Shown in pieces: positions 4,503 through 59,975 of a stretch of 64,000 bases of DNA. Made by a program: the position numbers and the translations under genes. This DNA comes from an uncultured Bacteroidales bacterium (GTDB lineage: Bacteria; Bacteroidota; Bacteroidia; Bacteroidales; WCHB1-69): assembly GCA_947165685.1 (NCBI GenBank), contig CAMVBK010000009.1, positions 2,524 to 66,523 on the forward strand, given 5' to 3'. Each line of letters begins with the position of its first letter. The first letter of the stretch is position 1. The notes below the pieces were generated by a model. The model ran no database searches and had not been told where the DNA came from. It worked only from the letters and a program-made list of their open reading frames with translations.

Positions 4503-4558
4503 TTAGAGCTTGGAGCTTAGAACTAAGAGCTAAGAGTTTAGAGCTTTGAACTTGGAAA
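4503..4558. repeat. Heptamer tandem array (TAGAGCT family), about 8 units
   Basis: TAGAGCT TGGAGCT TAGAACT AAGAGCT AAGAGTT TAGAGCT TTGAACT TGGAAAC. It lies between the convergent hypA-like and TPR-membrane genes. Confidence 0.9.
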
Positions 4559-4573
4559 CGAGGTCGAAGCTCT

Positions 4574-6610: not shown

Positions 6611-6626
6611 GACGGATTATGTGAAG

Positions 6627-6826
6627 GGTTGGTGGGTTTGGTGGGTTAGTGGGTTAGTGGGTTAGTGGTTTAGAAGTTTAGTAGTTTAGAAGTTTAGAAG
6701 TTTAGTGGTTTAATGGTTATTAGTCACTTGTCACTTGTCATTAGTCACTTGTCACTTGTCATTAGTCATTAGTCATTAGTCACTTGTCATTAGTCATTAG
6801 TCACTCGTCACTCGTCGTAGCCTTAA
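6627..6826. repeat. Composite 8-mer then 7-mer tandem array, about 200 nt
   Basis: (GGGTTAGT)x3, a GTTTAGNN 8-mer series (about 6 units), then TCACTTG/TCATTAG/TCACTCG heptamers (about 14 units). It fills almost the whole kdsA-TPR intergenic region. Confidence 0.95.
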
Positions 6827-7642: not shown

Positions 7643-7680
7643 ATTCGTTTATTTTGGGCGGCAAAGATACGATTTTTTGA

Positions 7681-7900
7681 CTTAGAACTCAGAACTTAGA
7701 ATCAGAACTTAGAACCTTGAAACCTGAAACCTGAAACCTTTTGAACCTTGAACTTTGAACCTTGAACTTTGAACCTAGTTTAGTGAGTTTAGTAGGTTTA
7801 GTAAGTTTAGCTCCCGGAAAAGAAACTCTCAGTTCTTAGCTCTTTGAACCTTGAACCTTGAACTTTGAACCTTGAAACCTGAAACCTGAAACCTGAAACC
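7681..7900. repeat. Composite tandem array in two parts, separated by about 30 nt of unique sequence
   Basis: TAGAACT-type, TGAAACC and TTGAACY heptamers, then GTTTAGTNN 9-mers x4, unique sequence at 7812-7840, then TTGAACY and TGAAACC heptamers again. Confidence 0.9.
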
Positions 7901-7977
7901 AAAAAGGGAGACCCTCTCGGATCCCCCTTTGCAATGGTCATAAAGAATTTACGCGAGATTCGCGAAATACGCGGAGA

Positions 7978-10900
7978 TTATCGTTTCACGACAAACGGTT
8001 TGGTCACCGTGCCGGCCTCCGTGGTCACGCGCACGAAGTACATGCCGTCGGCCAGGCCGGAAACGTTGACGGAGGTGGTTTCACCCGTCATCGGGACGGT
8101 CTGCACCAATTTTCCATACACATCAAACACGTGCAAGTCAGCACTCATTTGTACATTATACATTGTACATTGTACATTGACGAGGTCGTTCGCCGGGTTC
8201 GGGAACAACTTCACGCTGTTCTCCAGGTGGTTCTCGATGCCCACGTTGGTGGTGTGTGCGGTGATGATGGGAGACCATTCGCTCTCGTTGCCGCCGCCGC
8301 AGTTGGCCTGCACCTGAATCTCGTATTCGGTGTCGCCTTCAAGTTCGGTGATGGTGTAGCTGTTGGTGGTGGAGGTGGCGGAGGTGAGCTGGCCGTTCAC
8401 GGGCTTGTACTGGATGTTCCAGCTGACCGCGTTCGGATTGGCATCCCAAGTGAGGGTGATGGCGTGGTTCTCGATGTTGGAGGCGGTGAGGCCGGTCGGG
8501 GTCACGCACGGTTCGGGCGTGTCGTTAGGCAACGTGGTGAAGGTCAGCTCGTTGCCGTAAACGGTCTGTCCGTTGAAGGTGATGAATGCACGGAAGGTGT
8601 AGCCCGTGTTGGCAGTCAGACCGGTGAGGCTGGCCGTGAAGTTGTTGCCCGTGCCCGTGCCGGTCACTTGCGTGTAGGTGCCGCCAGTCGTGGTCTTCCA
8701 CTCGAAGCCCTTCGCCGTGACGGTCACGTTGTCGGGGTTCGTGATGGTGGCGTTCAGCGTGGCGGTGGTCTGTGTGACGTTCGTGGCGGCATTGGTGGCT
8801 ACCGTCGGGTTGGTGACGACCGGGCCGCTGCCGTCGGTGGAGACCGTGACGTTGGTCACGATAGCACCGGGCTGAGTGCCTTGTGAGCTGTCGTTGCGCC
8901 ACAGGAAGACTAATTTGCCTAAGCCGTTGGCATCCGGGTTGGGCATGTTCACACTCACGTGGATGGCATTGCCTTGCGTGAGGTTCAGCGTGAACGGGTT
9001 GCTTCCGTAGCCGGTCTGCGACTTATAAGCGGAGAAGTTGAGCGCGTTGGTGGAGTAGGTGTTTCCGGATTGGGAGTTATGTCCTGTTCCGGCGGTGAAA
9101 GTCTCTGTGCTCGGAACCAGGAACACTTTGAAGTAGTCAAATGAACTCTCGCCGCCGGCGCGGATATCGAACTCCACGTGCACGGAGTCATCGCTCGGCA
9201 TGTAGAACAGCTTCTCGGCCATCACCGTGGAACTGCTGCCGATGTTGTAGCCCGCGCTGCTGTTGTCGTTGGTGATGAACAGGGCGCTTTGGCTCTCGCC
9301 GCTCGGCGTACCCATCATCCAATGGTTGGCGCAGGTGCCGTTGTTGAGTTCCCAGGCTTGGTCAGTGGTGAAGTCGGTGGTGTAAGGCAGGTTCACGGCC
9401 ACCATCGTGGTGGTGAAGTTCACGGAAATGCCGGTGGAGAGTCCATCGGGGCCGCAGTCACTGTAGATATAGACCGTGTAGGCCGTGGTGGCGTTCAAGC
9501 CAGTGAGTGTGTAGCTCATGGCATTGTTGACGTTCACCGTGGTGCCTGTGCCTTGCGTGAAGCCAGCAGGGCCGTACTCCAGCACATAGTTGGAAGTGGG
9601 ACCGTTCCAGCTGATGGTCGCACCGTCGCCCGTGATGTCGCTAACCGATGCGCTGGTGGGATGGAAGCAGCTCGGAATCACGTCGAAGGTGAGGTTGTCG
9701 AGCAGGTAGGAGACATCAAGGCCGTTCATCGCGCGGAAGGCGATGTAGTGGTCGTTGCCCGTGTAGTTGTTGAGCAGGACCGTGAAGGGCAGCCAGGTGA
9801 AGGTCGCGCTGTACGTAATGGTTTCATACGGGGTGAAGGTGGTCGGGTCGTTCGGGTCGCTCATGGTGCCGATCTCGAACGTGCCGGCTGTGCCGTTCAG
9901 GTGGATTCGGGTCATACCGTCCACCATCAGGGTGTTCAGCGAGATGCTCGGGTCGAACATCGGGGTGACCGCCATCGTGTAGCAGTTGGGCGTGTAGTGG
10001 AAGTCCAAGGAACCGCCGGCGTAGGCATCGTTGGTTGTGACATACACCCAGTGGTTGGAAGGGTCGCTGGCATGGCGGCTCCAGCATTCCACGAAGTTGG
10101 AACCGTTCATGGAGGAGTACGTGTTGAAGTCGGCGATGAAGGGCAGGGTGGTGATGGCGCCGCAAGCGGTGGTGAACTGGATGCCCTGGGAGAGCATGGA
10201 GCTGTCGCTGCCGCAGTAGCCTCTCACGGCCACCTGGTAGGCGGTGTTCGGGTTGAGGCCGGTCAAGGAAAGGGAGTTGGTCGTAGTGGTCTGGTAGTCC
10301 TGCGTGCCGTCGGAACCGAGGATGGTCACGCCGAACAGGTCCGCGCTGCCGGTCCAGGTGAGGTCGGCCGAGTTTTCGGTGATGTTGCTGGCCGCCAGGT
10401 CCATAGGAGTGGCACACGTCACCACCGTCAGGCTGACGTTATCGACGGCTGCCGGCGGGTTGGTGCTGCCGGAAGTGTTACGCCAGTGGAAGTAGAGGCG
10501 GTAGATGTGGTCGCCGTTGCCCATGCCCGCGAACTGCGTGGCGGAGATCAGCATCTCCTCGTGCTGCCAGGTGTTCTGCTGGGAGAGCCAGTGCGCACCG
10601 TTGGTGGGGTAGCCGGGCATGCCGTGGAGATCGTAGTTCACGCCGCCCACAGAGGGAGGATTGCTGCCGGCATTGGCCGTCACCACGGCGGGGTCAAGCC
10701 AATAGACGCGCAGGAACTCGTACGTGGCGTTGTTGCCCTGGGCTTTCCAGTCGAAGGAGAGCTTCAGCTCGGTGGTGCCGTCGGGAACCAGGATGTCGCG
10801 GAACGCATAGACATGGCTCTCGGTGCCCGAGTAGGTGTTCGACGCGCCGTTGTTGTTGGAGATGTACAAACCGTTCATGCCGCCAGGAGTCGTGTTCACG

Positions 10901-18042: not shown

Positions 18043-18098
18043 ACCTAACCTATTAACCCATTACCCCATTAACCTATTCACCCATTCACCCATTCACC
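18043..18098. repeat. Octamer tandem array (CCATTMAC family), about 7 units
   Basis: CTATTAAC CCATTACC CCATTAAC CTATTCAC CCATTCAC CCATTCAC. The reverse complement resembles the GTTAATGG/GGGTTAGT units of the 6627 array. It abuts the glmS stop. Confidence 0.9.
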
Positions 18099-18100
18099 GA

Positions 18101-19951
18101 CTATTCCACCGACACGGACTTTGCCAGATTCCTCGGCTTGTCCACGTCGCAGTCGCGGATGACGGCCACGTGGTAGGCGAGCAGCTGCAGCGGCACGGAA
18201 GCCACCAACGGTGTGAGCAGCTCTTCGGTTCTGGGAATTTCGATGCAGAACTTCGACATGTTCTTCACGGCGGTGTCGCCTTCGGTGACCACGGAGATGA
18301 TGGTGCCCTTGCGGGCGATAATCTCTTGGATGTTACTCACCACCTTGTCGTAGGTTTTCTGTTCGGTGGCGATGACAATGACAGGCATATTGGTGTCTAT
18401 CAAGGCGATGGGACCGTGTTTGATTTCGGCGGCGGGGTATCCTTCGGCGTGGATGTAGGAGATTTCCTTGAGTTTGAGGGCCCCTTCCAGCGCCACGGGG
18501 AAGTTGACGCCGCGCCCGAGGAACATGGCGTTGGGCTTGGTGGCCACGTACTGCGCGATGCGCTGGATGTGCTGTTCCTGTTCGAGCACCAGGCGGATTT
18601 TGTCGGGGATGGACTCCAGGTCGTTGATTAGCTGGTGATACATCGACTTCGGGATGGTGCCTTTTTTCTCGGCGAGGCTCAGGGCCATGAGGGCGAGTAC
18701 GGTCACCTGCGCGGTGAACGCCTTGGTGGAGGCCACGCCGATTTCAGGCCCCGCGTGCGTGTAGGAACCGGCCATGGTTTCCCGTGCCAGGGTTGAGCCC
18801 ACCACGTTGCAGATGCCGATGACCGTGGCGCCGTGCCGCTTGCCGATCTCCACGGCGGCCAGCGTGTCGGCGGTCTCCCCCGACTGCGAGATGGCGATCA
18901 GCACGTCGTCTTCGCGGATGATGGGGTCGCGGTAGCGGAACTCGGAGGCGTACTCCACTTCAACGGGGATGCGCACCAACGTCTCGAACAGATGCTCCGC
19001 CACGAGTCCGGCGTGCCAGGAAGTGCCGCATGCCACGATGATGAACCGTCTGGCATTCAGCATCTTCTGCTCGTATTCGATGATGCCGCCCAAGGAAACC
19101 ACATCCTTCTTCAGGTTGATACGGCCGCGCATACTGTCGGTCACTGCCTTGGGCTGCTCGTAGATCTCCTTGAGCATGTAGGTGTCGAAGCCGCCCTTCT
19201 CCAACTGCTCCAAACTGAGCTCCAATTTTTGGAATTCGGGGCGTTTGAGCAGGTGCTTCTCATCGTTTATATTTCTGATTTTCAGAGGTTCGCCGCGTTT
19301 GATGACCCCTACGTCGCCGTCTTCGAGATAGACGACATCCTGGGTGTATTCCACGATGGGCGCCCCGTCGGAGCCCACGAAGTAGTTGCCGCCTGCGCGT
19401 CCGATGAGCAGCGGGCTGCCCTTTTTGGCGACGATGAGCCGGTCGGGGTCATCGACCGACAGGATGGCCAAGGCGTAGGTGCCCTCCACCATACTCAGGG
19501 CGAGCATGACGGCCTCGGGTAGCGCGAGCCCCTCTTTCTGCTGCACGCTTTTGATGAGATGCACAAGCACCTCGGTGTCGGTTTCGCTTCGGAAGACGAA
19601 CCCCTCCTGCAGCAGTTGTTTCTTGAGACTGAGGTAGTTCTCGATGATGCCGTTGTGGATCAGCGCCATGGAGCCGTCGTCGGCGATGTGCGGGTGGGCG
19701 TTCTCTTCGCTCGGCTCGCCGTGTGTGGCCCAGCGTGTGTGCGCGATGCCGGCCGTGCCGTGCGTGTCTTTCCCGGCGCAGTACTGGTCCAGCTCGTCCA
19801 CACGCCCCTTCTTTTTATACATTATTATATTATGGTCTTGCATTAAGGCCACGCCCGCACTGTCATACCCCCGGTATTCCAGTTTTCGAAGGCCGTTGAT
19901 GAGGACGCTGTAGGCTGCGTCCGTGCCGATGTATGCTACGATTCCGCACAT
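18101..19951 (-). CDS. glmS: Glutamine--fructose-6-phosphate aminotransferase (isomerizing)
   Basis: 616 aa. MCGIVAYIG supplies the N-terminal catalytic Cys, followed by two SIS domains and the C-terminal ..NLAKSVSVE. Confidence 0.95.
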   Translation of the reverse strand: MCGIVAYIGTDAAYSVLINGLRKLEYRGYDSAGVALMQDHNIIMYKKKGRVDELDQYCAGKDTHGTAGIAHTRWATHGEPSEENAHPHIADDGSMALIHNGIIENYLSLKKQLLQEGFVFRSETDTEVLVHLIKSVQQKEGLALPEAVMLALSMVEGTYALAILSVDDPDRLIVAKKGSPLLIGRAGGNYFVGSDGAPIVEYTQDVVYLEDGDVGVIKRGEPLKIRNINDEKHLLKRPEFQKLELSLEQLEKGGFDTYMLKEIYEQPKAVTDSMRGRINLKKDVVSLGGIIEYEQKMLNARRFIIVACGTSWHAGLVAEHLFETLVRIPVEVEYASEFRYRDPIIREDDVLIAISQSGETADTLAAVEIGKRHGATVIGICNVVGSTLARETMAGSYTHAGPEIGVASTKAFTAQVTVLALMALSLAEKKGTIPKSMYHQLINDLESIPDKIRLVLEQEQHIQRIAQYVATKPNAMFLGRGVNFPVALEGALKLKEISYIHAEGYPAAEIKHGPIALIDTNMPVIVIATEQKTYDKVVSNIQEIIARKGTIISVVTEGDTAVKNMSKFCIEIPRTEELLTPLVASVPLQLLAYHVAVIRDCDVDKPRNLAKSVSVE

Positions 19952-19961
19952 GTCAAGTGGG

Positions 19962-20024
19962 GTTCAAAGTTCAAAGTTCAAAGTTCAAACTCTAAGCTCT
20001 AAGCTCTAAATTCTAAGCTCTATA
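19962..20024. repeat. Heptamer tandem array in the reverse-complement orientation of the TTTGAAC/CTTAGAG units
   Basis: (GTTCAAA)x4, (CTCTAAG)x2, CTCTAAA, TTCTAAG, CTCTATA. It lies between the glmS start and the DUF4270 stop. Confidence 0.95.
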
Positions 20025-21338
20025 TTAATACGTGGAATAGGCGATTTCGAGGCGGAGGCGGGTGGGGGAGTCGAGGTGGGTGCCGTCGAGGACGAGACGG
20101 TGGGGCCGCACGCCGGAACCGCGCACAATGAGGTTGATGGAGTTGCTCCAGTCGCCCTGCTGGAGAATCAGTTGCTGCACCCATTTGGTGACGCGGAACC
20201 GATATTCGTGCTTCGAGGCGTCGTAGGTGCCACCGTAGTAGGCGACCGAGGTGTAGTAGTCGTCGTCGGGTATGAAGCGGATGGCGCTGTCAGATTTGCC
20301 GATGCCCTGCAGGGTGAGTGCGGTGGGATGGGTGAGATAGGGGTTGCTGGGTTCCATGTCGGTGACGACCAGTTCGGCACGATGGATGACCACCCGTTTG
20401 TCGAGGTGGTCGAAGGCGTGCTCCAGATTCGGGAAGGTGATGTGGGTCTTAACGCCGCCACCGCCTTGCACGTAAAGCACCTCCTGTCCGATGGCGTGCT
20501 GGTTCTGAAGCACCTCCTCCACAAAGTCGCTGCTTTGCGATGTCTCATAATTGTGACTGATGTGGGTGAAGCGGACGCACTTGTCCGAGCAGGGGAACGT
20601 GTAGCGCTTGTTCTGCTCGTTGGCATTATGGTAATACAGGGTGATGCCGGTCAGGGCGCTGGTCATGTTGGAGGTGAGCATGTAGCCTCGGTTGCCAGTG
20701 TGCGACACGGCGGTGATGTACAGCCCGGGCAGGTACCCCGAGAAGTCGTTGTTGAGTTCAGCCTGGTGGTTGAGCAGTTCCTGGCCGAACTGTGGCGACA
20801 GGCGGATGCGCATGTGCGCGTTATAGACACCGGTATCGACCACCATGGAGGTGTTGGGCCTCAAGGTGTAGCCGTTGAGATTTTGGTTGATCGGGGTCGG
20901 GTCGTGTTCCATCGTGGCGTCCTGGTGGTAGGTGGTCTCCGAGTCGAGGCTTTCGGTGAGCCGGTGCACGCGGATGCCCACGGTGGAGTTGGTGTCGCCG
21001 TAATAGCCGGAGATCTGCAGGGTGAGCACCACGGAGTCGATGGAGGGGGCTTCGCCGAAGTTGACGGCATCGCCGGCCAAGGCGAATTCCGCGTAGATAC
21101 CCGCCTCACTATCCCCGAACACGGGGTCGCTGAGATGGCCCAGGATGTTGGCCGACAGGTTGGTGGTGCTGATGGTATCCTCCAGTTCAGAGTACGCCTG
21201 CAAGGTGACGGTGTCCGTGAAGGTGGTGCCCACCAGGTTGTCGATCAGGTCGAGGCCGATGTCGGAACTTTCCCTTTTGCAGCCCGGCATGAGAAGGCAC
21301 GCTAAAAGCGCAAGGGTGCAGAGAAGAAGCTTTTTCAT
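20025..21338 (-). CDS. DUF4270-family lipoprotein
   Basis: 437 aa with lipoprotein signal LLACLLMPGC. As recalled from other Bacteroidales, it sits immediately downstream of the short glycogen-synthase-like gene. The family call is from memory of that synteny. Confidence 0.55.
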   Translation of the reverse strand: MKKLLLCTLALLACLLMPGCKRESSDIGLDLIDNLVGTTFTDTVTLQAYSELEDTISTTNLSANILGHLSDPVFGDSEAGIYAEFALAGDAVNFGEAPSIDSVVLTLQISGYYGDTNSTVGIRVHRLTESLDSETTYHQDATMEHDPTPINQNLNGYTLRPNTSMVVDTGVYNAHMRIRLSPQFGQELLNHQAELNNDFSGYLPGLYITAVSHTGNRGYMLTSNMTSALTGITLYYHNANEQNKRYTFPCSDKCVRFTHISHNYETSQSSDFVEEVLQNQHAIGQEVLYVQGGGGVKTHITFPNLEHAFDHLDKRVVIHRAELVVTDMEPSNPYLTHPTALTLQGIGKSDSAIRFIPDDDYYTSVAYYGGTYDASKHEYRFRVTKWVQQLILQQGDWSNSINLIVRGSGVRPHRLVLDGTHLDSPTRLRLEIAYSTY

Positions 21339-22471: not shown

Positions 22472-23980
22472 ATGATGAATACGAAACATGTCCATATCAT
22501 CGGGGGCGGTGTCGGCGGCCTTTTCACCGCCGCGCTCCTTGCCAAGGAGGGTTTCCGCGTGACCGTTCTGGAACGCAGCCCCCACCTTGGCGGCGGCCTG
22601 CAGTCGTTCACCCGTCGCGGGGTGGCCTTCGACGCGGGCATGCATATCGTGGGCGGCCTCTGCCCCGGCGGCTCCCTTCACCGTATCTGCCGCTATCTCG
22701 GCATTCTGGACGAGATTTCCTACCGTCCCGTCGATGCCGACTGCATGGACGAGGTCTTCTGCTTCGCCGACGGGCACACCTACCGCATCCCGCAGGGGCG
22801 CGAGCCGTTCGCGGAGTTTTTCCAGCGCACTTTCCCGGGGGAACGGGAGGCCGTTCGCCGCTACACCGACCGTCTGTTCGGTATGGCCGAGCAGGTCGAT
22901 TTCTTCTTCCTGCGCCCCGGCAGCGAGTCGGGACCGGGCTCCGATCCTGCGTTCTACCAATCGTCCGCGCAGCTCATCGCCGACCATGTCCGCGACCCGC
23001 GCCTGCGCAGTCTGCTGGCCTACCTCAGCCCGTTATGCGGCGGTGAGGCCGGTCACACGCCCGCCTACATCTTCGCTCTCATCAACTATCTGTATGTCAC
23101 TGGTCAATTCCGTTTCGAGGGACCGGCCGAGCAACTGGCCGACGCCCTGGTGCGTCGCATTCGGCAGTGGGGCGGCGAGGTGCTCGTCAATGCCGAGGTC
23201 ACGGGAATCGGATTTGAGGACGGGAAGGTGAAAACGCTCGCCACCGCCGATGGCCGGGTCTTCGAGACGGATGCCGTTGTTTCGTCCATTCATCCGCAAT
23301 CGTTATTGAAAACGATTGATGGACAGTTGTTTACGAAGGCAGCGCGGAACCGTTTGGCCGCTGCCCCGAACAACTATTCGGCCTATTGTGTCTATGTGGT
23401 GCTGAAGGAGGGTACGTTCCCCTACATCAACCATCCGTGCTATTGCCTGGATCGTTACGAAGATGTGTGGGAGTTTGGCCGGTATGTGCCGGAGAGATGG
23501 CCGCGTAGTTTCGTCTATTACACGCCGTGCGTGCGTGGACAAGGGCCGTATGCCCGCGCCCTGCAGGTGTTCGTCTTTTCCCCGTTCTCGATGTGCGAGC
23601 GCTGGGCGGGCACGACCGTCGGGTGGCGCGGCGCGGAGTACGAGGAGTGGAAAGCACTACACACAGATCTGATACTGAGAAAGTTAGAACAAAGGCATCC
23701 AGGTTTCCGCGCGCGCGTGGAGGCGGTCTATGACGCCACCCCGCTGACCATCCGCGACTATTTCAACGAACCGGAAGGCGCGCTCTACGGCCTTCGCAAG
23801 GACAGCCGCGACCCATACGCCGGCTATCTCCCGCTCCGCACCAAGGTCGGCAACTTCTTCATGACCGGCCAAAACGTCTATCTGCACGGTTGCTGCGGCG
23901 TTCCCCTCACCGCCGTGATGACCGCCGAGGCGGTGATGGGAGAGAAGGACGGGATCGTGAAGAAGATTTGTGATGAGTGA
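22472..23980 (+). CDS. NAD(P)/FAD-dependent oxidoreductase, phytoene-desaturase/amine-oxidase superfamily
   Basis: HIIGGGVGGLFTAALLAKEGFRVTVLERSPHLGG is a dinucleotide-binding fold. The start is moved to the ATG at 22472 because the listed GTG at 22331 lies inside the tRNA. Confidence 0.75.
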   Translation: MMNTKHVHIIGGGVGGLFTAALLAKEGFRVTVLERSPHLGGGLQSFTRRGVAFDAGMHIVGGLCPGGSLHRICRYLGILDEISYRPVDADCMDEVFCFADGHTYRIPQGREPFAEFFQRTFPGEREAVRRYTDRLFGMAEQVDFFFLRPGSESGPGSDPAFYQSSAQLIADHVRDPRLRSLLAYLSPLCGGEAGHTPAYIFALINYLYVTGQFRFEGPAEQLADALVRRIRQWGGEVLVNAEVTGIGFEDGKVKTLATADGRVFETDAVVSSIHPQSLLKTIDGQLFTKAARNRLAAAPNNYSAYCVYVVLKEGTFPYINHPCYCLDRYEDVWEFGRYVPERWPRSFVYYTPCVRGQGPYARALQVFVFSPFSMCERWAGTTVGWRGAEYEEWKALHTDLILRKLEQRHPGFRARVEAVYDATPLTIRDYFNEPEGALYGLRKDSRDPYAGYLPLRTKVGNFFMTGQNVYLHGCCGVPLTAVMTAEAVMGEKDGIVKKICDE

Positions 23981-24025
23981 CGAGTGATTTGTGATTTGTG
24001 ATGTGTAATGAGTGATGAGTGTTTT
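23970..24025. repeat. Heptamer tandem array (GTGATGA family), 8 units, beginning inside the last codons of the upstream CDS
   Basis: GTGATGA GTGACGA GTGATTT GTGATTT GTGATGT GTAATGA GTGATGA GTGTTTT. This is the reverse complement of the TCATCAC/TCGTCAC-type units at 6700-6826. The TGA stop at 23978-23980 lies in unit 2. Confidence 0.95.
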
Positions 24026-24105
24026 GTTTCGTTATATTTATTCCTTGAAAGCCCTGAAAGGGCGTCCTATGTCAGCCCAGGGTGAGCGTTAGCGAGCCCT
24101 GGGGC

Positions 24106-24180
24106 GAATGAATGAAATGAATAAAATGAATAAAACGAATGAAATGAATAAAACGAATAAAACGAAACGAAACGAATAAA
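24106..24180. repeat. Irregular A-rich tandem array (GAATAAAAY / GAAAY units)
   Basis: GAATGAATGAAATGAATAAAATGAATAAAACGAATGAAATGAATAAAACGAATAAAACGAAACGAAACGAATAAA. The period varies from 4 to 9 nt. Confidence 0.85.
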
Positions 24181-25029: not shown

Positions 25030-25085
25030 GCTCAAAGCTCAAAGCTCTCAGCTCCCAGTTCTCAGCTCTCAGCTCTCAGTTCATT
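25030..25085. repeat. Heptamer tandem array (GCTCAAA/GCTCTCA family), 8 units
   Basis: GCTCAAA x2, GCTCTCA, GCTCCCA, GTTCTCA, GCTCTCA x2, GTTCATT. It starts 3 nt after the hydrolase stop. Confidence 0.95.
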
Positions 25086-40956: not shown

Positions 40957-41979
40957 ATGAACAAGTTTACGATAGTGTTGCTCTTGTGCGCGTCTTTTGT
41001 GTTTTCGTTTGCGCAAAACGCTGGAAATAAGGCTGTTATAGGCTTCTACAACGTGGAAAACCTTTTCGACACGATTGACGACCCGTTGAAGAACGACGAA
41101 CAGTTCCTGCCCGGCGGCGACTACCGCTGGAACACCGAACGCTACAACGCCAAGCTGGAGGCCCTCTCCAAGGTGATTGGCGAGCTGGCGCAGTTGGAAG
41201 GCGGTCTGGTGGTGCTGGGTGTCTCCGAGGTGGAGAACGAGCAGGTGCTGCTCGACCTGGCCGCCACCGAACGGCTGGCTCCCTACAAACTCTCCGTCTG
41301 CCACCACGAGTCGCCCGACCGCCGAGGCGTCGATGTGGCATTCTTCTACGATGCCGCCCGTTTCAAGATCCTCAGTACGAAGGCCTTCCCGACCATCGTG
41401 CCCAACAACCCCGATTTCATCACCCGCGACCAGTGGCTGATGACCGGCGTCTTGGACGGCGTTGACACCTTGGACATCGTCGTCAACCACTGGCCCTCGA
41501 AGTCCGGCGGCGAGAAACGCAGTCTCCCCGGCAGGATGGCCGCAGGCGTCCTCGGCCGCAGCATCGCCGACTCCGTGCTGCGCTCCCGTCCAAATGCCAA
41601 GTTCATCTACATGGGCGACCTCAACGACAACCCCACCTCCAAGTGCATCATCGCCGAAATGGCCACGAAGACGAAGCCGGAGAAACTTTCGGACACCGAC
41701 CTCTACAACCCCATGTGGAAGCTCTTCCGCGACGGTCTCGGCTCCTACGCCTACCGCGACTCCTGGGAAATGTTGGACAACATCATCATCTCCGGTGCGC
41801 TGGTCGATGCCGCCCCCGGCACCTACCGCTTCCGCAGCGCCCACATCTTCCGTAAGTCCTTCATGTTCACCAAGTCCGGCTCCTACATGGACTACCCCTT
41901 CCGCACCTTCGCCGGCGGCAACTACCAAGGCGGCTACAGCGACCACCTGCCGGTGTATATCGTTTTAGTTAAGAATTGA
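40957..41979 (+). CDS. Secreted endonuclease/exonuclease/phosphatase (EEP) family protein
   Basis: Signal peptide MNKFTIVLLLCASFVFSFAQ. GFYNVENLFD is the N-terminal catalytic Asn/Glu region. GDLND and SDHLPV are the C-terminal catalytic His region. Confidence 0.75.
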   Translation: MNKFTIVLLLCASFVFSFAQNAGNKAVIGFYNVENLFDTIDDPLKNDEQFLPGGDYRWNTERYNAKLEALSKVIGELAQLEGGLVVLGVSEVENEQVLLDLAATERLAPYKLSVCHHESPDRRGVDVAFFYDAARFKILSTKAFPTIVPNNPDFITRDQWLMTGVLDGVDTLDIVVNHWPSKSGGEKRSLPGRMAAGVLGRSIADSVLRSRPNAKFIYMGDLNDNPTSKCIIAEMATKTKPEKLSDTDLYNPMWKLFRDGLGSYAYRDSWEMLDNIIISGALVDAAPGTYRFRSAHIFRKSFMFTKSGSYMDYPFRTFAGGNYQGGYSDHLPVYIVLVKN

Positions 41980-42147
41980 GAATTGTTGGCTGTTGGCTGT
42001 TGGCTATTGGCTTTGAACTTTGAACCTTGAACCTTGAACTTTGAACTTAGAATTTAGAATTTAGAACTTAGAACCTGAAACTTGAAACCTGAAACTTGAA
42101 ACCTGAAACTTGAAACTTGAAACTTGAAACTTGAAACTTGAAACCAC
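41973..42147. repeat. Heptamer tandem array, 25 units in perfect register (175 nt)
   Basis: Read base by base: GAATTGA, GAATTGT, TGGCTGT x2, TGGCTAT, TGGCTTT, GAACTTT, GAACCTT x2, GAACTTT, GAACTTA, GAATTTA x2, GAACTTA, GAACCTG, then ten AAACTTG/AAACCTG units ending AAACCAC. There are no indels. The upstream TGA stop is inside unit 1. Confidence 0.95.
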
Positions 42148-42153
42148 CATTAT

Positions 42154-42900
42154 ATGAAACGCTTAGTAATCATTCCGACTTATAAGGAAAAGGAGAACAT
42201 CGAGAACATCATCCGGGCCATTTACGACCTGATCGATGTCCACATTTTGATTATCGACGACAATTCGCCGGACGGGACGGCCGACATCGTGAAGTCGCTG
42301 ATGCCCGAGTTTGAAGGGCGGCTGTTCATCGAGGAGCGCAGCGGCAAGCTGGGCTTGGGCACGGCCTACATCCACGGCTTCAAGTGGGGGCTGGCGCACG
42401 GCTACGACTACCTCTTCGAGATGGACGCCGACTTCTCGCACGACCCGCACGACCTGCAGCGGCTGTTTGATGCCTGCGAGACGCAGAACGCCGATGTGGC
42501 CGTGGGCTCGCGCTACTGCCAGGGAGTGAACGTGCTGAACTGGCCGATGGGCCGCCTGCTGATGTCCTACTACGGCTCCGCCTATGTGCGTTGTGTGCTG
42601 GGCGTGCCCGTGAAGGACACCACCGCCGGCTTCATCTGCTACCGCGCCGACACGCTCAACGCCATCGACTTCGACAAGATCAAGCACATCGGCTACGGTT
42701 TCCAGATCGAGATGAAGTTCACGGCTTGGAAGTTAGGCTTCAAGATCGTGGAGGTCCCCATCATCTTCAAGGACAGGACGCAGGGCGTCTCCAAAATGAG
42801 CTCCGGCATCTTCCGCGAGGCCATCTTTGGGGTCATTGGCCTGAAAATCCGCAGCTGGTTCCGGAAGTGGGAACGTGTCGATAACCGGGCGAAATGTTGA
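42154..42900 (+). CDS. Polyprenol/dolichol-phosphate mannosyltransferase (GT2)
   Basis: 248 aa. VIIPTYKEKENI, IIDDNSPDGT, EMDADFSH, and a C-terminal amphipathic tail. Confidence 0.85.
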   Translation: MKRLVIIPTYKEKENIENIIRAIYDLIDVHILIIDDNSPDGTADIVKSLMPEFEGRLFIEERSGKLGLGTAYIHGFKWGLAHGYDYLFEMDADFSHDPHDLQRLFDACETQNADVAVGSRYCQGVNVLNWPMGRLLMSYYGSAYVRCVLGVPVKDTTAGFICYRADTLNAIDFDKIKHIGYGFQIEMKFTAWKLGFKIVEVPIIFKDRTQGVSKMSSGIFREAIFGVIGLKIRSWFRKWERVDNRAKC

Positions 42901-53645: not shown

Positions 53646-54554
53646 ATGGAAGCCAAAGGGAATCGGAAATGGGTCGGGCATCTCGCGGTGCTGGCCGTCT
53701 ATATTATTTTCGGGGTGAACCCGAACTGCTCGAAGGCGGTGGTGCCGGACTACATCACGCCCGAGTGCTACACGGCCTTGCGTCTTGTCTTCGGGGCGGC
53801 GGGCTTTTGGCTGATTTCCCTTTTCACACCGCGCGAGAAGGTGCCCCGTCGCGACATGGCGCTCATTCTTCTCGGGGCCGTCTCCCTCTACGGCACTCTC
53901 TGGGCCTTCGCCGAGGCCATGCGTTTCATCTCGCCCACTTACGTGTCGCTCATCTCCGCCATGTCGCCCTTGGTGGTCATGCTCATGGCCGCCGTCTTCC
54001 TTAAGGAGCCGATCTCCTCGCGGAAGGCCGCCGGGGTCTTCTTCGGCATCGCCGGTGCCCTGATGATGATCGTCTTCTCCCTGCACGGCGACACGCACTA
54101 CAGCAACGTCGGCGCCCTGCTCTGCCTCGTCAACATCCTGTTCTATGCCGCCTACCTGCTCATCACCCGCGCCATCTCCCCGAAATACTCGCCCGTTACG
54201 ATGATGAAGTGGATGTTTCTGTTCAGTGCGCTGCTGAGCATTCCCGCGGCTGTCCCGTCGGTCACTGCATCGCCGATCCTGATGGGCACTGCTCCTGCGA
54301 TGGCCTACGTTAACATGCTGGTTGTCGCGCTCTTCGCCACGGTCATCGCCTACTTCTTGCTGCCCGTCGCCCTGCGCTACCTGCGTCCCACCACCGTCAG
54401 CATGTACAGCAACCTGCAGCCTATCGTCACGGCCGTGCTCGCCATCGCTGTCGGCCAGGATGTCTTCACCTGGAACAAGCCGGTGGCCCTCGTCCTCGTC
54501 ATCATCGGCGTATTCCTCGTCACCACCAGCCGGGCGAAATCAATTGAAAATTGA
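53646..54554 (+). CDS. DMT-superfamily (EamA-like) transporter
   Basis: 302 aa with about 10 TM segments arranged as two EamA repeats. Confidence 0.8.
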   Translation: MEAKGNRKWVGHLAVLAVYIIFGVNPNCSKAVVPDYITPECYTALRLVFGAAGFWLISLFTPREKVPRRDMALILLGAVSLYGTLWAFAEAMRFISPTYVSLISAMSPLVVMLMAAVFLKEPISSRKAAGVFFGIAGALMMIVFSLHGDTHYSNVGALLCLVNILFYAAYLLITRAISPKYSPVTMMKWMFLFSALLSIPAAVPSVTASPILMGTAPAMAYVNMLVVALFATVIAYFLLPVALRYLRPTTVSMYSNLQPIVTAVLAIAVGQDVFTWNKPVALVLVIIGVFLVTTSRAKSIEN

Positions 54555-54604
54555 AAATTGAGAATTGAAAATTGTGAAACCTGAAACTTGAAACCTGAAA
54601 CCAC
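54542..54604. repeat. Heptamer tandem array, 9 units (AATTGAA then AAACYTG)
   Basis: AATTGAA x2, AATTGAG, AATTGAA, AATTGTG, AAACCTG, AAACTTG, AAACCTG, AAACCAC. The EamA gene stop (TGA, 54552-54554) lies inside the array. The array ends 1 nt before the next ATG. Confidence 0.95.
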
Positions 54605-54605
54605 C

Positions 54606-55772
54606 ATGCTCATCGCTTTTATCATCGTTTTGATCCTTTTTCTTCTTCCGGATTTGTACATTTCCCTCGCGTTTCTTCGCGGGGCTGCGCTCGTGTGGCG
54701 TGTCTTGTTTTTCGTCCCCACGCTTGTGGGGCTCTTCTCGGTGGTCGGCTTTCGCTTCTTCGGGATGACAAGCGGCCTCAGTTCGTTGTTTTTGGCGATG
54801 CTCCTCTGCTTCGCGCTTCCCAAGTTCGTGTTCACGCTTATATCGTTGACGGCGAAGCTGTTGGGGCTGTGGAGTGCCACGGCTTTCACGGTGGTGAACA
54901 CCTTTGGCCTCGTGACCGCCTGTGCGGTCTCCCTGATGGCGCTGTATGGGCTCACCCTCGGGTGGAAACGCTTGGAAACCAAGCATGTGGACCTCTACTT
55001 TGAGGATCTTCCGGAAGCCTACGACGGCTACCGCATTGCGCACCTCAGCGACTTGCACGTGGGCACCTATGGGCACAAGACCGCCTTTGTGGAGAAAGTA
55101 GTGCGCAGCGTGAATGAGGAAAATCCTGATTTGGTGGTGTTTACGGGCGATATTGTGAACGTTGACCCGGATGAGTTGACGCCCTTTGCGCCGGTGTTGT
55201 CTCGGCTTGCGGCAAAGGACGGTGTGATTTCCGTGCTTGGCAACCACGACTACTGTCTTTACGGCAACCCTGACCGGTGGTCGCATGTGCGTGAAGGTGC
55301 CATGCAAGTGGTTGACAGGGAACGCTCCATGGGTTGGGATGTGCTGATGAACGAGTCAAGGGTGCTGAAGAGGGGGGAAGCGCGTCTTGCGGTTGCGGGG
55401 GTGGAGAACACGGGCAAGCCGCCGTTCCCGCAGATTGGCGACCTGCGGGCGGCCGTGAACGGGATAACGGACTATGACACTGTTGCATGTGCTGAGGATG
55501 TCTTCACCATACTTCTTTCGCACGATCCGTCGCATTGGCGCATGGAGGTCTTGCCGGAGACGCACATCGCGCTCACCTTGTCGGGGCACACGCACGCGGC
55601 GCAGTTCAAACTGGGCCGCTGGTCGCCCTCCAGTTGGTTGTATCCGGATTGGGGTGGGGCATATCAGTCTGACGGACAGCAGCTTTACATCTCCGAAGGC
55701 CTGGGCGGCACCCTTCCGTTCCGTTTTGGCGCCACTCCGCAGTTAGTGCTTCTCACGTTGCATCGCCGGTGA
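54606..55772 (+). CDS. Membrane-anchored metallophosphoesterase (calcineurin-like)
   Basis: Four N-terminal TM helices, then HLSDLHVG, TGDIVN, GNHD and GHTH motifs. The ATG at 54606 is used because the listed TTG at 54588 lies inside the heptamer array. Confidence 0.8.
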   Translation: MLIAFIIVLILFLLPDLYISLAFLRGAALVWRVLFFVPTLVGLFSVVGFRFFGMTSGLSSLFLAMLLCFALPKFVFTLISLTAKLLGLWSATAFTVVNTFGLVTACAVSLMALYGLTLGWKRLETKHVDLYFEDLPEAYDGYRIAHLSDLHVGTYGHKTAFVEKVVRSVNEENPDLVVFTGDIVNVDPDELTPFAPVLSRLAAKDGVISVLGNHDYCLYGNPDRWSHVREGAMQVVDRERSMGWDVLMNESRVLKRGEARLAVAGVENTGKPPFPQIGDLRAAVNGITDYDTVACAEDVFTILLSHDPSHWRMEVLPETHIALTLSGHTHAAQFKLGRWSPSSWLYPDWGGAYQSDGQQLYISEGLGGTLPFRFGATPQLVLLTLHRR

Positions 55773-55842
55773 AAGGCTTTCCCAAAATCATGTGAACCCG
55801 AAACTTGAAACGCCCCCTCATACATCTTTAACCAAACTTTTG

Positions 55843-58957: not shown

Positions 58958-59914
58958 ATGAAAAGATTGTCGGTTTTTCTTGCAGTAATACTTTTGGTGG
59001 TTTCCGTAGATGCGCAATCCACCCAAAAGACGCGCCGGATGGCCTCGAACTCGAAGGAGGCGGTGACGGAACGGCAGATTTCCAGCCGCTTCAACCAAGG
59101 ACTGCGGGCCTATTACACGGCGCAATATGACGAGGCGGTGCAGGCCTTTTCCGGCATCCTTTCCGACAACCCTAAGCATGCTCCCTCGTATTACATGCTG
59201 GCGCGTGTGTATGCCGGGCAGCAACGTTATACCGAGGCGGAATCGGCCTGCAGACAGGCGGTCAAGCTTGACAAGAACAACATTTGGTACCAGGTTGCCC
59301 TGGCGCAGTCCCTTATGACCAACGAGAATTTCAAAGAAGCCCTGCCGCTTTGGGAAAAAGTGTGCCGTGAATATCCTAATAACACGGACTACCTCGCCGC
59401 TTTGGTTTTGTGCTACGAGAAGACGGCCCAGCCGGCCAAGGCAGCGGAAACCCGCGCTCAGCTCGCGGCATTGCAGCAGGAGGATTCACAGAAGCCCTCT
59501 GCCGCGCCTTCAGAAGGCTCTTCCGGAAACTCGAAGGCGGCCGGACAGGCGGCGCTGAAGGCTCAGCAGTATGAAAAGGCTGTGGCACATTTGGAGCAAG
59601 CCTTGCGGGAAGACGACACCGACTACGAGGTGTGGGAGGCCTTTTCTGAGGCCGTCTCCAAGTCGGGACAGTGGGCGAGGCTCACCGCCTACGAAGACGA
59701 CCTGACCACGCTTTTCCCGCAGTCGGCGGCACTGCTGACCACCCTCGCCGACGCGTTCTTGCAACAAGGAAACAACGAAAAGTCGGTGGAATACTATCGC
59801 CAGGCGCTTGCCTTCTCCTTTGACGAGACGTTGACCAAGCAGATCCGCCGGGGACTGCATGACGCCTACACGCGCATGGGCGATGCCGATAAGGCTGCGC
59901 GCTATCGCGATTAG
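58958..59914 (+). CDS. Secreted TPR-repeat protein
   Basis: Signal peptide MKRLSVFLAVILLVVSVDAQ; the ATG at 58958 is preferred over the listed TTG at 58952. Several TPR-like repeats follow, for example YYMLARVYAGQQRYTEAESACRQAVKLDKNN. Confidence 0.7.
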   Translation: MKRLSVFLAVILLVVSVDAQSTQKTRRMASNSKEAVTERQISSRFNQGLRAYYTAQYDEAVQAFSGILSDNPKHAPSYYMLARVYAGQQRYTEAESACRQAVKLDKNNIWYQVALAQSLMTNENFKEALPLWEKVCREYPNNTDYLAALVLCYEKTAQPAKAAETRAQLAALQQEDSQKPSAAPSEGSSGNSKAAGQAALKAQQYEKAVAHLEQALREDDTDYEVWEAFSEAVSKSGQWARLTAYEDDLTTLFPQSAALLTTLADAFLQQGNNEKSVEYYRQALAFSFDETLTKQIRRGLHDAYTRMGDADKAARYRD

Positions 59915-59975
59915 TAAGTTTAGTAAGTTTAGGGAGTTTAGTAAGTTTAGGGAGTTTAGAGCCAACAGCCAATAG
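59911..59975. repeat. Nonamer tandem array (TTAGTAAGT/TTAGGGAGT x5), then GCCAACA-type heptamers
   Basis: TTAGTAAGT x2, TTAGGGAGT, TTAGTAAGT, TTAGGGAGT, then TTAGA GCCAACA GCCAATA G. GCCAACA is the reverse complement of TGTTGGC. The TAG stop of the TPR gene (59912-59914) is in unit 1. Confidence 0.95.

Follow-up and report, generated by a model that had tools for sequence, protein, structure and literature searches.

Why should one stretch of bacterial DNA carry, in spacer after spacer, long head-to-tail runs of units of seven to nine nucleotides (nt), and how do such runs arise? This question is raised by a 64,000-nt stretch (hereafter, the window) of the genome of an uncultured ruminant-gut Bacteroidales (57% GC) and, in particular, by the array located at 41973-42147, between a gene of the EEP family and a GT2 gene. 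A previous reading made from the letters of the window alone (the sequence-only reading) had listed 12 intergenic sites with such arrays and had argued that their strict register and shared units pointed to a common generating mechanism or to selection on periodicity. As described below, the arrays are long simple-sequence repeats (SSRs) with 7-9-nt units which behave as variable-number tandem repeats (VNTRs), and they belong to a little-studied but known kind of bacterial SSR without demonstrated function. Descriptions of heptamer arrays between genes go back to 1990, and in many bacteria such arrays are statistically more frequent than expected.

Arrays were detected with Tandem Repeats Finder (TRF) at period 7, 8 or 9 and their units were also read by eye; the gene map was built from gene calls on matching metagenome contigs and a scan of open reading frames. 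TRF returned arrays at each of the 12 listed sites (37-159, 4503-4556, 6626-6816, 7680-7900, 18046-18098, 19962-20022, 23965-24027, 24107-24180, 25030-25083, 41984-42144, 54542-54602 and 59911-59959), and the three-unit trace reported at 55791-55812 is visible as well. The enrichment goes beyond what base composition predicts, as the window contains 10 perfect period-7 runs of at least three copies and one such run of period 8, versus none of either kind in 100 dinucleotide shuffles of it. Array sequence amounts to 999 of the 3781 intergenic bases (26%), and the arrays are either intergenic or cover at most five terminal codons of a gene. The sole intragenic period-7 run (TTGTACA, 4.4 copies, 8149-8179) lies within the coding region of the gene for a 2317-aa fn3/T9SS protein.

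Regarding register, the sequence-only reading held that the phase is never broken. This is correct for the two arrays whose units it counted, since cutting into heptads yields exactly 25 units at 41973-42147 and exactly 18 at 35-160, with zero indels in both cases. It does not apply elsewhere: TRF indels reach 4-16% in the rows 6626-6673, 6719-6816, 7680-7715 and 7712-7776, the segment 7680-7776 holds one 6-mer and one 9-mer unit, and in other strains the array at 35-160 mixes 6-mers (TTAGAC) with 7-mers. Within 41973-42147, neighbouring units differ by 0-1 base at 19 of the 24 junctions and by 3-4 bases at three junctions. Base identity within arrays declines steadily with distance (0.84 at lag 7, 0.76 at 14, 0.72 at 21 and 0.67 at 28), and the lag analysis of the window arrays gave no extra signal at the helical-phase super-period of 21 bp; in consequence, selection on periodicity is not needed to account for the register. 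The proposed common generating process and non-random vocabulary are, on the other hand, supported: tandem TGAAACY occurs in four spacers of the window, TTGAACY in four (one of them reversed), GTTTAGN in three and TGTTGGC in two.

The evidence on how the arrays change comes from the comparison of strains. The exact GT2 protein (42154-42900) was found on 21 contigs of ruminant and other gut metagenomes and in two metagenome-assembled genomes (MAGs); the sequencing runs containing the region are mostly sheep gut metagenomes, and the nearest species representative is a goat-omasum Bacteroidales MAG with 96% protein identity. Each spacer was cut out by means of flanking anchors in up to eight other strains. 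An identical 146-nt allele is carried by three different assemblies whose flanks are identical, and an identical 182-nt allele by another three, so that an assembly artefact is ruled out. More generally, strains with zero single-nucleotide differences in the flanks have the same allele across samples and assemblers, and strains whose flanks diverge by about 0.6-1.5% nearly always have different ones. The length polymorphism is in whole units: locus by locus, all strains agree in how the unit families follow one another and in the units at both ends, and only the numbers within blocks vary, sometimes by blocks of two to four units, multi-unit block duplications included. The non-repeat portions of array-bearing spacers are nearly invariant among strains, and five array-free spacers differ in length by no more than 1 nt. 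The premise that slippage would yield only homogeneous microsatellites is thus contradicted, since whole-unit steps, fixed order and edges, and steady lag decay together form the pattern of stepwise replication slippage plus point mutation. The rate of change appears to be well above that of substitution and below that of phase-variable loci.

The arrays of the window, found by TRF unless another source is given in brackets, are the following (allele lengths refer to the whole spacer in the strains compared):

A1, 35-160: TAGAACT, (GTTGGCT)5, then TTGAAC/TGAAAC/TTAAAC units, 18 heptads (TRF, heptad cutting); fills the spacer before a DRTGG-domain gene and ends 7 nt short of the ATG at 168; alleles 158-246 nt.
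A2, 4503-4556: TTAGAGC/TTAGAAC/TTTGAAC in the convergent spacer between the HypA gene and a PMT_2/TPR gene; AGAGCTT units complementary to 4561-4573; alleles 194/201/208 nt, step 7.
A3a, 6626-6720: 8-mers GGGTTAGT, then GGTTTAGW/AGTTTAGW, then GGTTTAAT; same family order and variable copy number in 7 strains.
A3b, 6721-6816: heptads TAGTCAC/TTGTCAC/TAGTCAT with a 28-nt higher-order repeat (TRF, lag analysis); its end is separated by 13 nt from the DAHP synthase stop codon.
A4a, 7680-7810: ACTTAGA, TGAAACC and TTGAACC heptads, then AGTTTAGTR 9-mers, with register breaks; upstream of the TATCTTTG promoter-like box of the DAHP synthase gene.
A4b, 7844-7900: TTGAACC/TGAAACC; immediately follows the terminator hairpin (7903-7930, minus strand) belonging to the gene for the 2317-aa T9SS protein.
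A5, 18046-18098: 8-mers TAACCCAT/TCACCCAT; adjoins the stop codon of glmS (18101) and lies upstream of the L28 gene's two TATTTTTG boxes; alleles 127/143/151/159 nt, step 8.
A6, 19962-20022: (GTTCAAA)4 (CTCTAAG)n; fills the BamH-glmS spacer; alleles 59/73/101/108/129 nt, step 7.
A7a, 23965-24027: GATTTGT/GATGAGT/GACGAGT; covers the last codons and the stop codon of an amine oxidase gene (TRF, strains).
A7b, 24107-24180: 9-mers AATGAATAA/AACGAATAA; in part complementary to 24021-24046, on the other side of an invariant core (TRF, strains).
A8, 25030-25083: GCTCAAA/GCTCTCA; adjoins the stop codon of an S9-like hydrolase gene, upstream of the TATTTTTG box of a HAD gene; alleles 87 and 115 nt.
A9, 41973-42147 (the array that raised the question): (GAATTGA)2, (TGGCTGT)4, GAACTTT/GAACCTT, GAATTTA/GAACTTA, then (AAACTTG/AAACCTG)n, 25 heptads (heptad cutting); supplies the stop codon of the EEP-family gene (TGA, 41977-41979) and ends 6 nt before the GT2 ATG (42154); alleles 132/153/168/174 nt, step 7 except for the 168-nt allele.
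A10, 54542-54602: (AATTGAA)n (TGAAACY)n; the EamA gene takes its four terminal codons and its stop from this array, which leaves 2 nt before the Metallophos ATG; alleles 50/57/92/134 nt, step 7.
Three-unit trace, 55791-55812: TGAACCC GAAACTT GAAAC; spacer length equal in all strains.
A12, 59911-59975: 9-mers TTAGTAAGT/TTAGGGAGT, then GCCAACA twice; covers the stop codon of a TPR gene; constant 75-nt spacer, with units swapped among strains.

The arrays are placed in a regular manner with respect to genes. When spacers of at least 50 nt are sorted by intergenic class, arrays are present in 9 of the 22 tandem spacers, in the single convergent one and in none of the three divergent ones. Arrays A9, A10, A7a and A12 supply the stop codon of the upstream gene, A5, A6 and A8 adjoin one, and at their other end the arrays stop short of the next start codon by a few bases, or else ahead of a promoter box or terminator. 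The motif TAnnTTTG is the -7 promoter box of Bacteroidetes. In the window it is found 26-62 nt before the starts of genes that head operons (DAHP synthase, L28, GT5, HAD, EEP, EamA and PpiC), and it lies between array and start codon or is absent where the array reaches the start codon. No TAnnTTTG occurs within 300 nt of the directly array-preceded genes DRTGG, PMT_2, GlmS, S9-like, GT2, Metallophos and UvrA-like and, because of this absence, A1, A3, A6, A7, A9, A10 and A12 are probably spacers inside operons; A4, A5 and A8 lie between the end of a transcription unit and the next promoter. Array A4b starts right after the strongest terminator hairpin of the region, and terminator-like pairing exists at the end of A2.

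Scans for hairpins and terminators detected no terminator-like hairpin or inverted repeat inside the window arrays. The arrays were therefore rejected as (i) intrinsic terminators, since a GC-rich hairpin followed by a T run is missing inside them; and (ii) REP/BIME elements or MITEs, since they lack internal inverted repeats. A REP-like element, separate from the heptamer arrays, does exist at 1052-1204: its hairpin unit, about 35 nt long (CCCCACAC...AAGCGnAGCGCAGTGTGGGG), is present in 1 to 5 tandem copies depending on the strain (spacers 119-258 nt), and a further copy lies upstream of GT2 in the sister species (L011). A CRISPR array was equally discarded, as the units are 7-9 nt long and contiguous, without spacers, versus repeats of 24-48 nt separated by unique spacers. 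No known RNA family or tRNA was found at the arrays, and the sole Rfam match of the window lies between two of them: Acido-Lenti-1 RNA (RF01687; 24050-24103, minus strand; 40.9 bits versus a gathering score of 37), within an 80-nt core which is invariant among strains and has variable arrays on either side. Across this core, 24021-24046 is complementary to the 9-mer array at 24143-24168, and part of the Acido-Lenti-1 motif (GCCCTGAAAGGGC) is also found upstream of GT2 in L011.

Evidence at the RNA level consists of assembled metatranscriptome contigs, which break inside repeats and do not allow transcript ends to be placed. One metatranscriptome contains a 1.8-kb contig that extends from glmS across almost the whole of A6; in another RNA contig, GT2 is joined to the final 50 nt of A9. 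Array sequence hence appears in RNA. The BamH gene, upstream of glmS, had no coverage in three RNA runs (X17, X27 and X28; window 19700-20300); glmS alone is RNA-covered, yet no promoter box was found between both genes. A transcription start in or near A6 is possible. The arrays have 22-52% GC, and their folding on either strand ranges from 0 to -0.24 kcal/mol per nt versus a background of -0.33 (the exception being the minus strand of A8, -0.33). Compared with dinucleotide shuffles, which fold just as weakly, they have minimum free energy z-scores of about 0; weak folding is hence explained by composition, not by arrangement, and a special lack of RNA structure was rejected.

Bacteroidota are not known to use the sigma-70 consensus. 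Matches of TTGAAA units to sigma-70 promoters, at 140-169 and 42124-42153, were rejected, as transcription would start inside the gene. Two orientation rules were also dropped: one relative to genes, suggested by four window loci and absent in a larger set of metagenome loci (see below), and one relative to the chromosome strand, in which 13 plus versus 6 minus array families do not differ significantly.

For the wider comparison, two separate sets of 80 loci were used: (i) Bacteroidota loci chosen solely by GT2 homology; and (ii) metagenome loci with (TTGAAAC)n arrays (L116-L195). In three more distant relatives the EEP-family gene is 1-12 nt from GT2 and, in consequence, A9 fills, in this lineage specifically, an operon junction that used to be tight, and the gene pair can do without it. 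In the sister species the same site measures about 130 nt and contains a different 8-mer array (CGATGATR), growing out of its own stop codon, plus hairpin elements. Arrays of period 7-9 occur in about 30 of the 80 Bacteroidota loci, and period 7 accounts for 34 of the 45 perfect runs in 1.4 Mb of unrelated Bacteroidota loci. Exact units are seldom common to different species of this set; the themes GTTCAA, CAACAG, CTCTAA and AATTGA recur.

Among the metagenome loci no orientation bias was observed: both flanking genes lie on the same strand as (TTGAAAC)n in 10 loci and both on the opposite strand in 15. An inverted partner array within 200 nt was found in 31 of these 80 loci, and none within the window. 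Such inverted pairs, for instance (GTTTCAA)n, a loop and (TTGAAAC)n, would form long hairpins; others were seen at L013 10739-10813, L082 983-1056, L090 3718-3813 and L054 18874-18955. Summed contig depth over 41910-42212 and 54538-54609 was about 90 to more than 2000 times that of the flanks (runs X1-X3, X17 and X25-X28), and this high depth, together with the many different flanks attached, implies that the same units are present at very many sheep gut loci, in RNA as well as DNA. Two further observations concern the surroundings of A9 and of the window. In L008 (1-474; MAG GCA_045112015.1), a different upstream gene, whose product ends in GYSVRCVKEKD, is joined to GT2 via a 340-nt composite array which includes 9-mers otherwise seen at 7777 and 59911; this may be a real rearrangement through arrays or a chimeric contig via shared repeats. 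Some 8 kb upstream of the window start, one strain has Cas1 and Cas2 genes (L092, 1-787) where other strains have MBOAT and small genes, i.e. a variable region borders the window.

Taken as a whole, the arrays show the traits of long SSRs and VNTRs: head-to-tail units above chance, whole-unit differences among strains with conserved flanks, and a non-coding location. In a survey summarised in two later papers, heptamers dominated the long SSRs with 5-11-nt units, and polymerase slippage was the proposed cause (Mrazek, Guo and Shah, 2007, via PMC4679880 and PMC4692102). According to these summaries, its repeats coincide with the present ones in being tandem short units far beyond chance, heptamer-dominated, non-coding and sporadic across lineages; the survey did not describe the present lineage, and the load of 26% of the intergenic bases and the composite arrays of several families set the window apart. 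The GGGAATC and GGGGA(C/T)T arrays of Xanthomonas and Nostoc are about 90% intergenic, occur on both strands, lie nearer the end of the upstream open reading frame than the next one, are mostly flanked by co-oriented genes and seldom by divergent ones, and vary extensively in length and sequence among close relatives (Rehm et al., 2015, PMC4692102). Their placement, both-strand occurrence and length variation are shared by the window arrays. But while the Xanthomonas and Nostoc units are G-rich and quadruplex-forming, with one dominant unit per genome, the present genome has at least six families of mostly AT-rich units, with G3 runs at 6626-6667 only. On the plus strand, opposite to the flanking genes, the GGGTTRGT units of this segment provide at least five G3 runs separated by 5-nt loops and match the G-quadruplex motif.

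The short tandemly repeated repetitive (STRR) heptamers of cyanobacteria include CCCCAGT, TTGGTCA and CAACAGT (STRR3). The window unit CAACAGC (TGTTGGC on the other strand, rotated) is one base away from STRR3, and CAACAGT itself occurs in another Bacteroidales locus (L054). As in Calothrix and Anabaena (PMC4692102), several heptamer families are spread across many intergenic sites of one genome. Membership in the STRR was rejected, since the organism is a Bacteroidales, of a different phylum, and the other unit families differ; neither group has a known function. The TAACTGA direct repeats of Beggiatoaceae, cyanobacteria and five Bacteroidetes were reported together with long arrays and other heptamers in some Bacteroidetes spacers (MacGregor, 2015, PMC4679880). 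These repeats, too, are heptamers, placed in forward orientation a few nt ahead of start codons, and their unit carries stops in all frames (PMC4679880), whereas the window arrays are attached to the stop codon upstream just as often as to the start codon and have mixed orientation; tandem TAACTGA is absent from the window. Finally, CAACAG-type satellites recur in several species (Subirana and Messeguer, PMC6749651), and a recent survey found a high density of short tandem repeats in Bacteroidota and an enrichment of 6-9-bp units in prokaryotes (PMC12699852).

The reading that we consider probable, with modest confidence, is that the arrays are slippage-driven VNTRs which fill unconstrained spacer, bounded by signals at their edges, and have no dedicated function. 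Judging by the allele patterns, the arrays would grow, shrink and diversify in place through slippage of one to a few units, point mutation would make variant units and local amplification would turn these variants into blocks. They would settle in the part of the spacer that is free of signals, with edges held fixed by selection and an interior that drifts. Most of them, being inside apparent operons, would be transcribed as AT-rich, weakly folding intercistronic leaders, and their effect would presumably be limited to changing spacer length. The recurrence of units between loci may be due partly to generally favoured heptamers and possibly to sequence exchange among arrays.

Of the alternatives, the one that deserves most attention, unlikely as we judge it, is that the arrays are knobs that tune expression, with copy number in a transcribed leader or intercistronic spacer grading the stability or translation of the downstream mRNA. 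Its model is the ATCTTTC repeat of Haemophilus influenzae hmw1A/hmw2A, a heptamer array of variable copy number in a transcribed 5' leader which does control expression (PMC12721329, PMC8262952). In the window, seven arrays lie directly upstream of genes without a promoter box of their own, RNA contigs link array and downstream gene, copy number varies from strain to strain, and AT-rich, weakly folding sequence would suit initiation without a Shine-Dalgarno sequence in Bacteroidota. However, the hmw locus switches within clones and controls an adhesin, whereas the present alleles are stable within clones from different animals and adjoin housekeeping genes (glmS, GT2, L28) rather than surface-variation genes; as strains with identical flanks from different samples share alleles, a contingency (phase-variable) locus was rejected. 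Besides, the units close to the start codon are fixed and the interior alone varies, arrays are also found after terminators and upstream of promoters, relatives do without the spacer, and folding energies equal those of shuffles. Rather more doubtful is a loading platform for a DNA- or RNA-reading protein with a 7-nt register, such as a nucleoid protein, an OB-fold cold-shock protein or ribosomal protein S1. The recurrence of units across loci and, above composition-matched controls, across distant taxa speaks for it, as do the abundance of arrays in rumen metatranscriptome contigs and the proposal of S1, Csp and Csr family proteins for TAACTGA repeats (PMC4679880). Against it stand the unbiased orientation in the 80 loci, contrary to an RNA-strand-specific role, the presence of at least six unrelated unit families in one genome, the other units of the sister species, the lack of a 21-bp helical-phase signal and the fact that no candidate protein has been identified.

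The sequence-only reading had also suggested that the arrays insulate neighbouring genes, by stops in all three frames or by termination, and this we hold to be quite improbable. It is true that 10 of 13 arrays present three-frame stops on the strand of the upstream gene, that four arrays supply its stop codon and that arrays adjoin the 3' ends of genes, but three-frame stops are also found on the other strand in 6 of 13 and are missing from the sense strand of A4b, A8 and A12. Neither hairpins nor terminator-like sites exist in the arrays, RNA contigs cross them, orientation is unbiased and relatives make do with 1-12 nt. The least credible of these proposals, and a very remote one, is that arrays spread between loci as units via ectopic recombination, template switching or an unknown mobile process. 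Arrays A1 and A9 share the same family order (TGTTGGC, TTTGAAC, TGAAAC, CCAC, ATG) and the same junction TGGCTTTGAAC, the L008 composite array joins GT2 to a different gene, and transposition of short-repeat satellites has been proposed (Subirana and Messeguer, 2019, PMC6749651). Nevertheless, the L008 contig may have been joined chimerically during assembly, family order is specific to each locus and constant among the strains, and terminal inverted repeats, target duplications and transposase genes are all absent.

Several observations do weigh against a purely neutral reading. None of the arrays is missing from any of the strains. In all four arrays that reach a start codon (A1, A6, A9 and A10), the sense strand shows TTGAAC/TGAAAC and the last letters are AAACC(A/C)C, which selection could explain, four loci being a small number; an RNA-level role of the arrays is possible as well. 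Furthermore, at least 120 metagenome contigs of 27-67% GC, their sources being soil, sediment, water and gut, contain (TTGAAAC)3 and, in a small test in IMG/VR, three window units yielded 24, 40 and 20 tandem triplets versus 2, 3, 2, 7 and 7 for five composition-matched controls. There thus seems to be a general preference for some heptamers as repeat units, which goes beyond what neutral slippage alone explains. An extended version, according to which TTGAAAC, TTTGAAC, CAACAGC and their relatives are favoured across phyla and phage contigs through a conserved sequence-specific process, with operon spacers of this Bacteroidales lineage becoming transcribed platforms under length selection, strikes us as improbable, somewhat more so than the protein platform and less so than insulation; the process would be a protein stepping 7 nt along nucleic acid or a polymerase or primase property by which these units are especially liable to slippage.

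With about one array per 5 kb, this organism constitutes a dense natural example of heptamer arrays. Allelic series across strains are ready in public rumen and gut metagenomes, and relatives without a spacer at the same site offer a clear contrast; together, density, allelic series and contrast make the rate of change, the orientation and the effects on expression testable. The arrays break short-read assemblies and may cause chimeric joins. They are, at the same time, potential strain-typing markers for an uncultured rumen bacterium.

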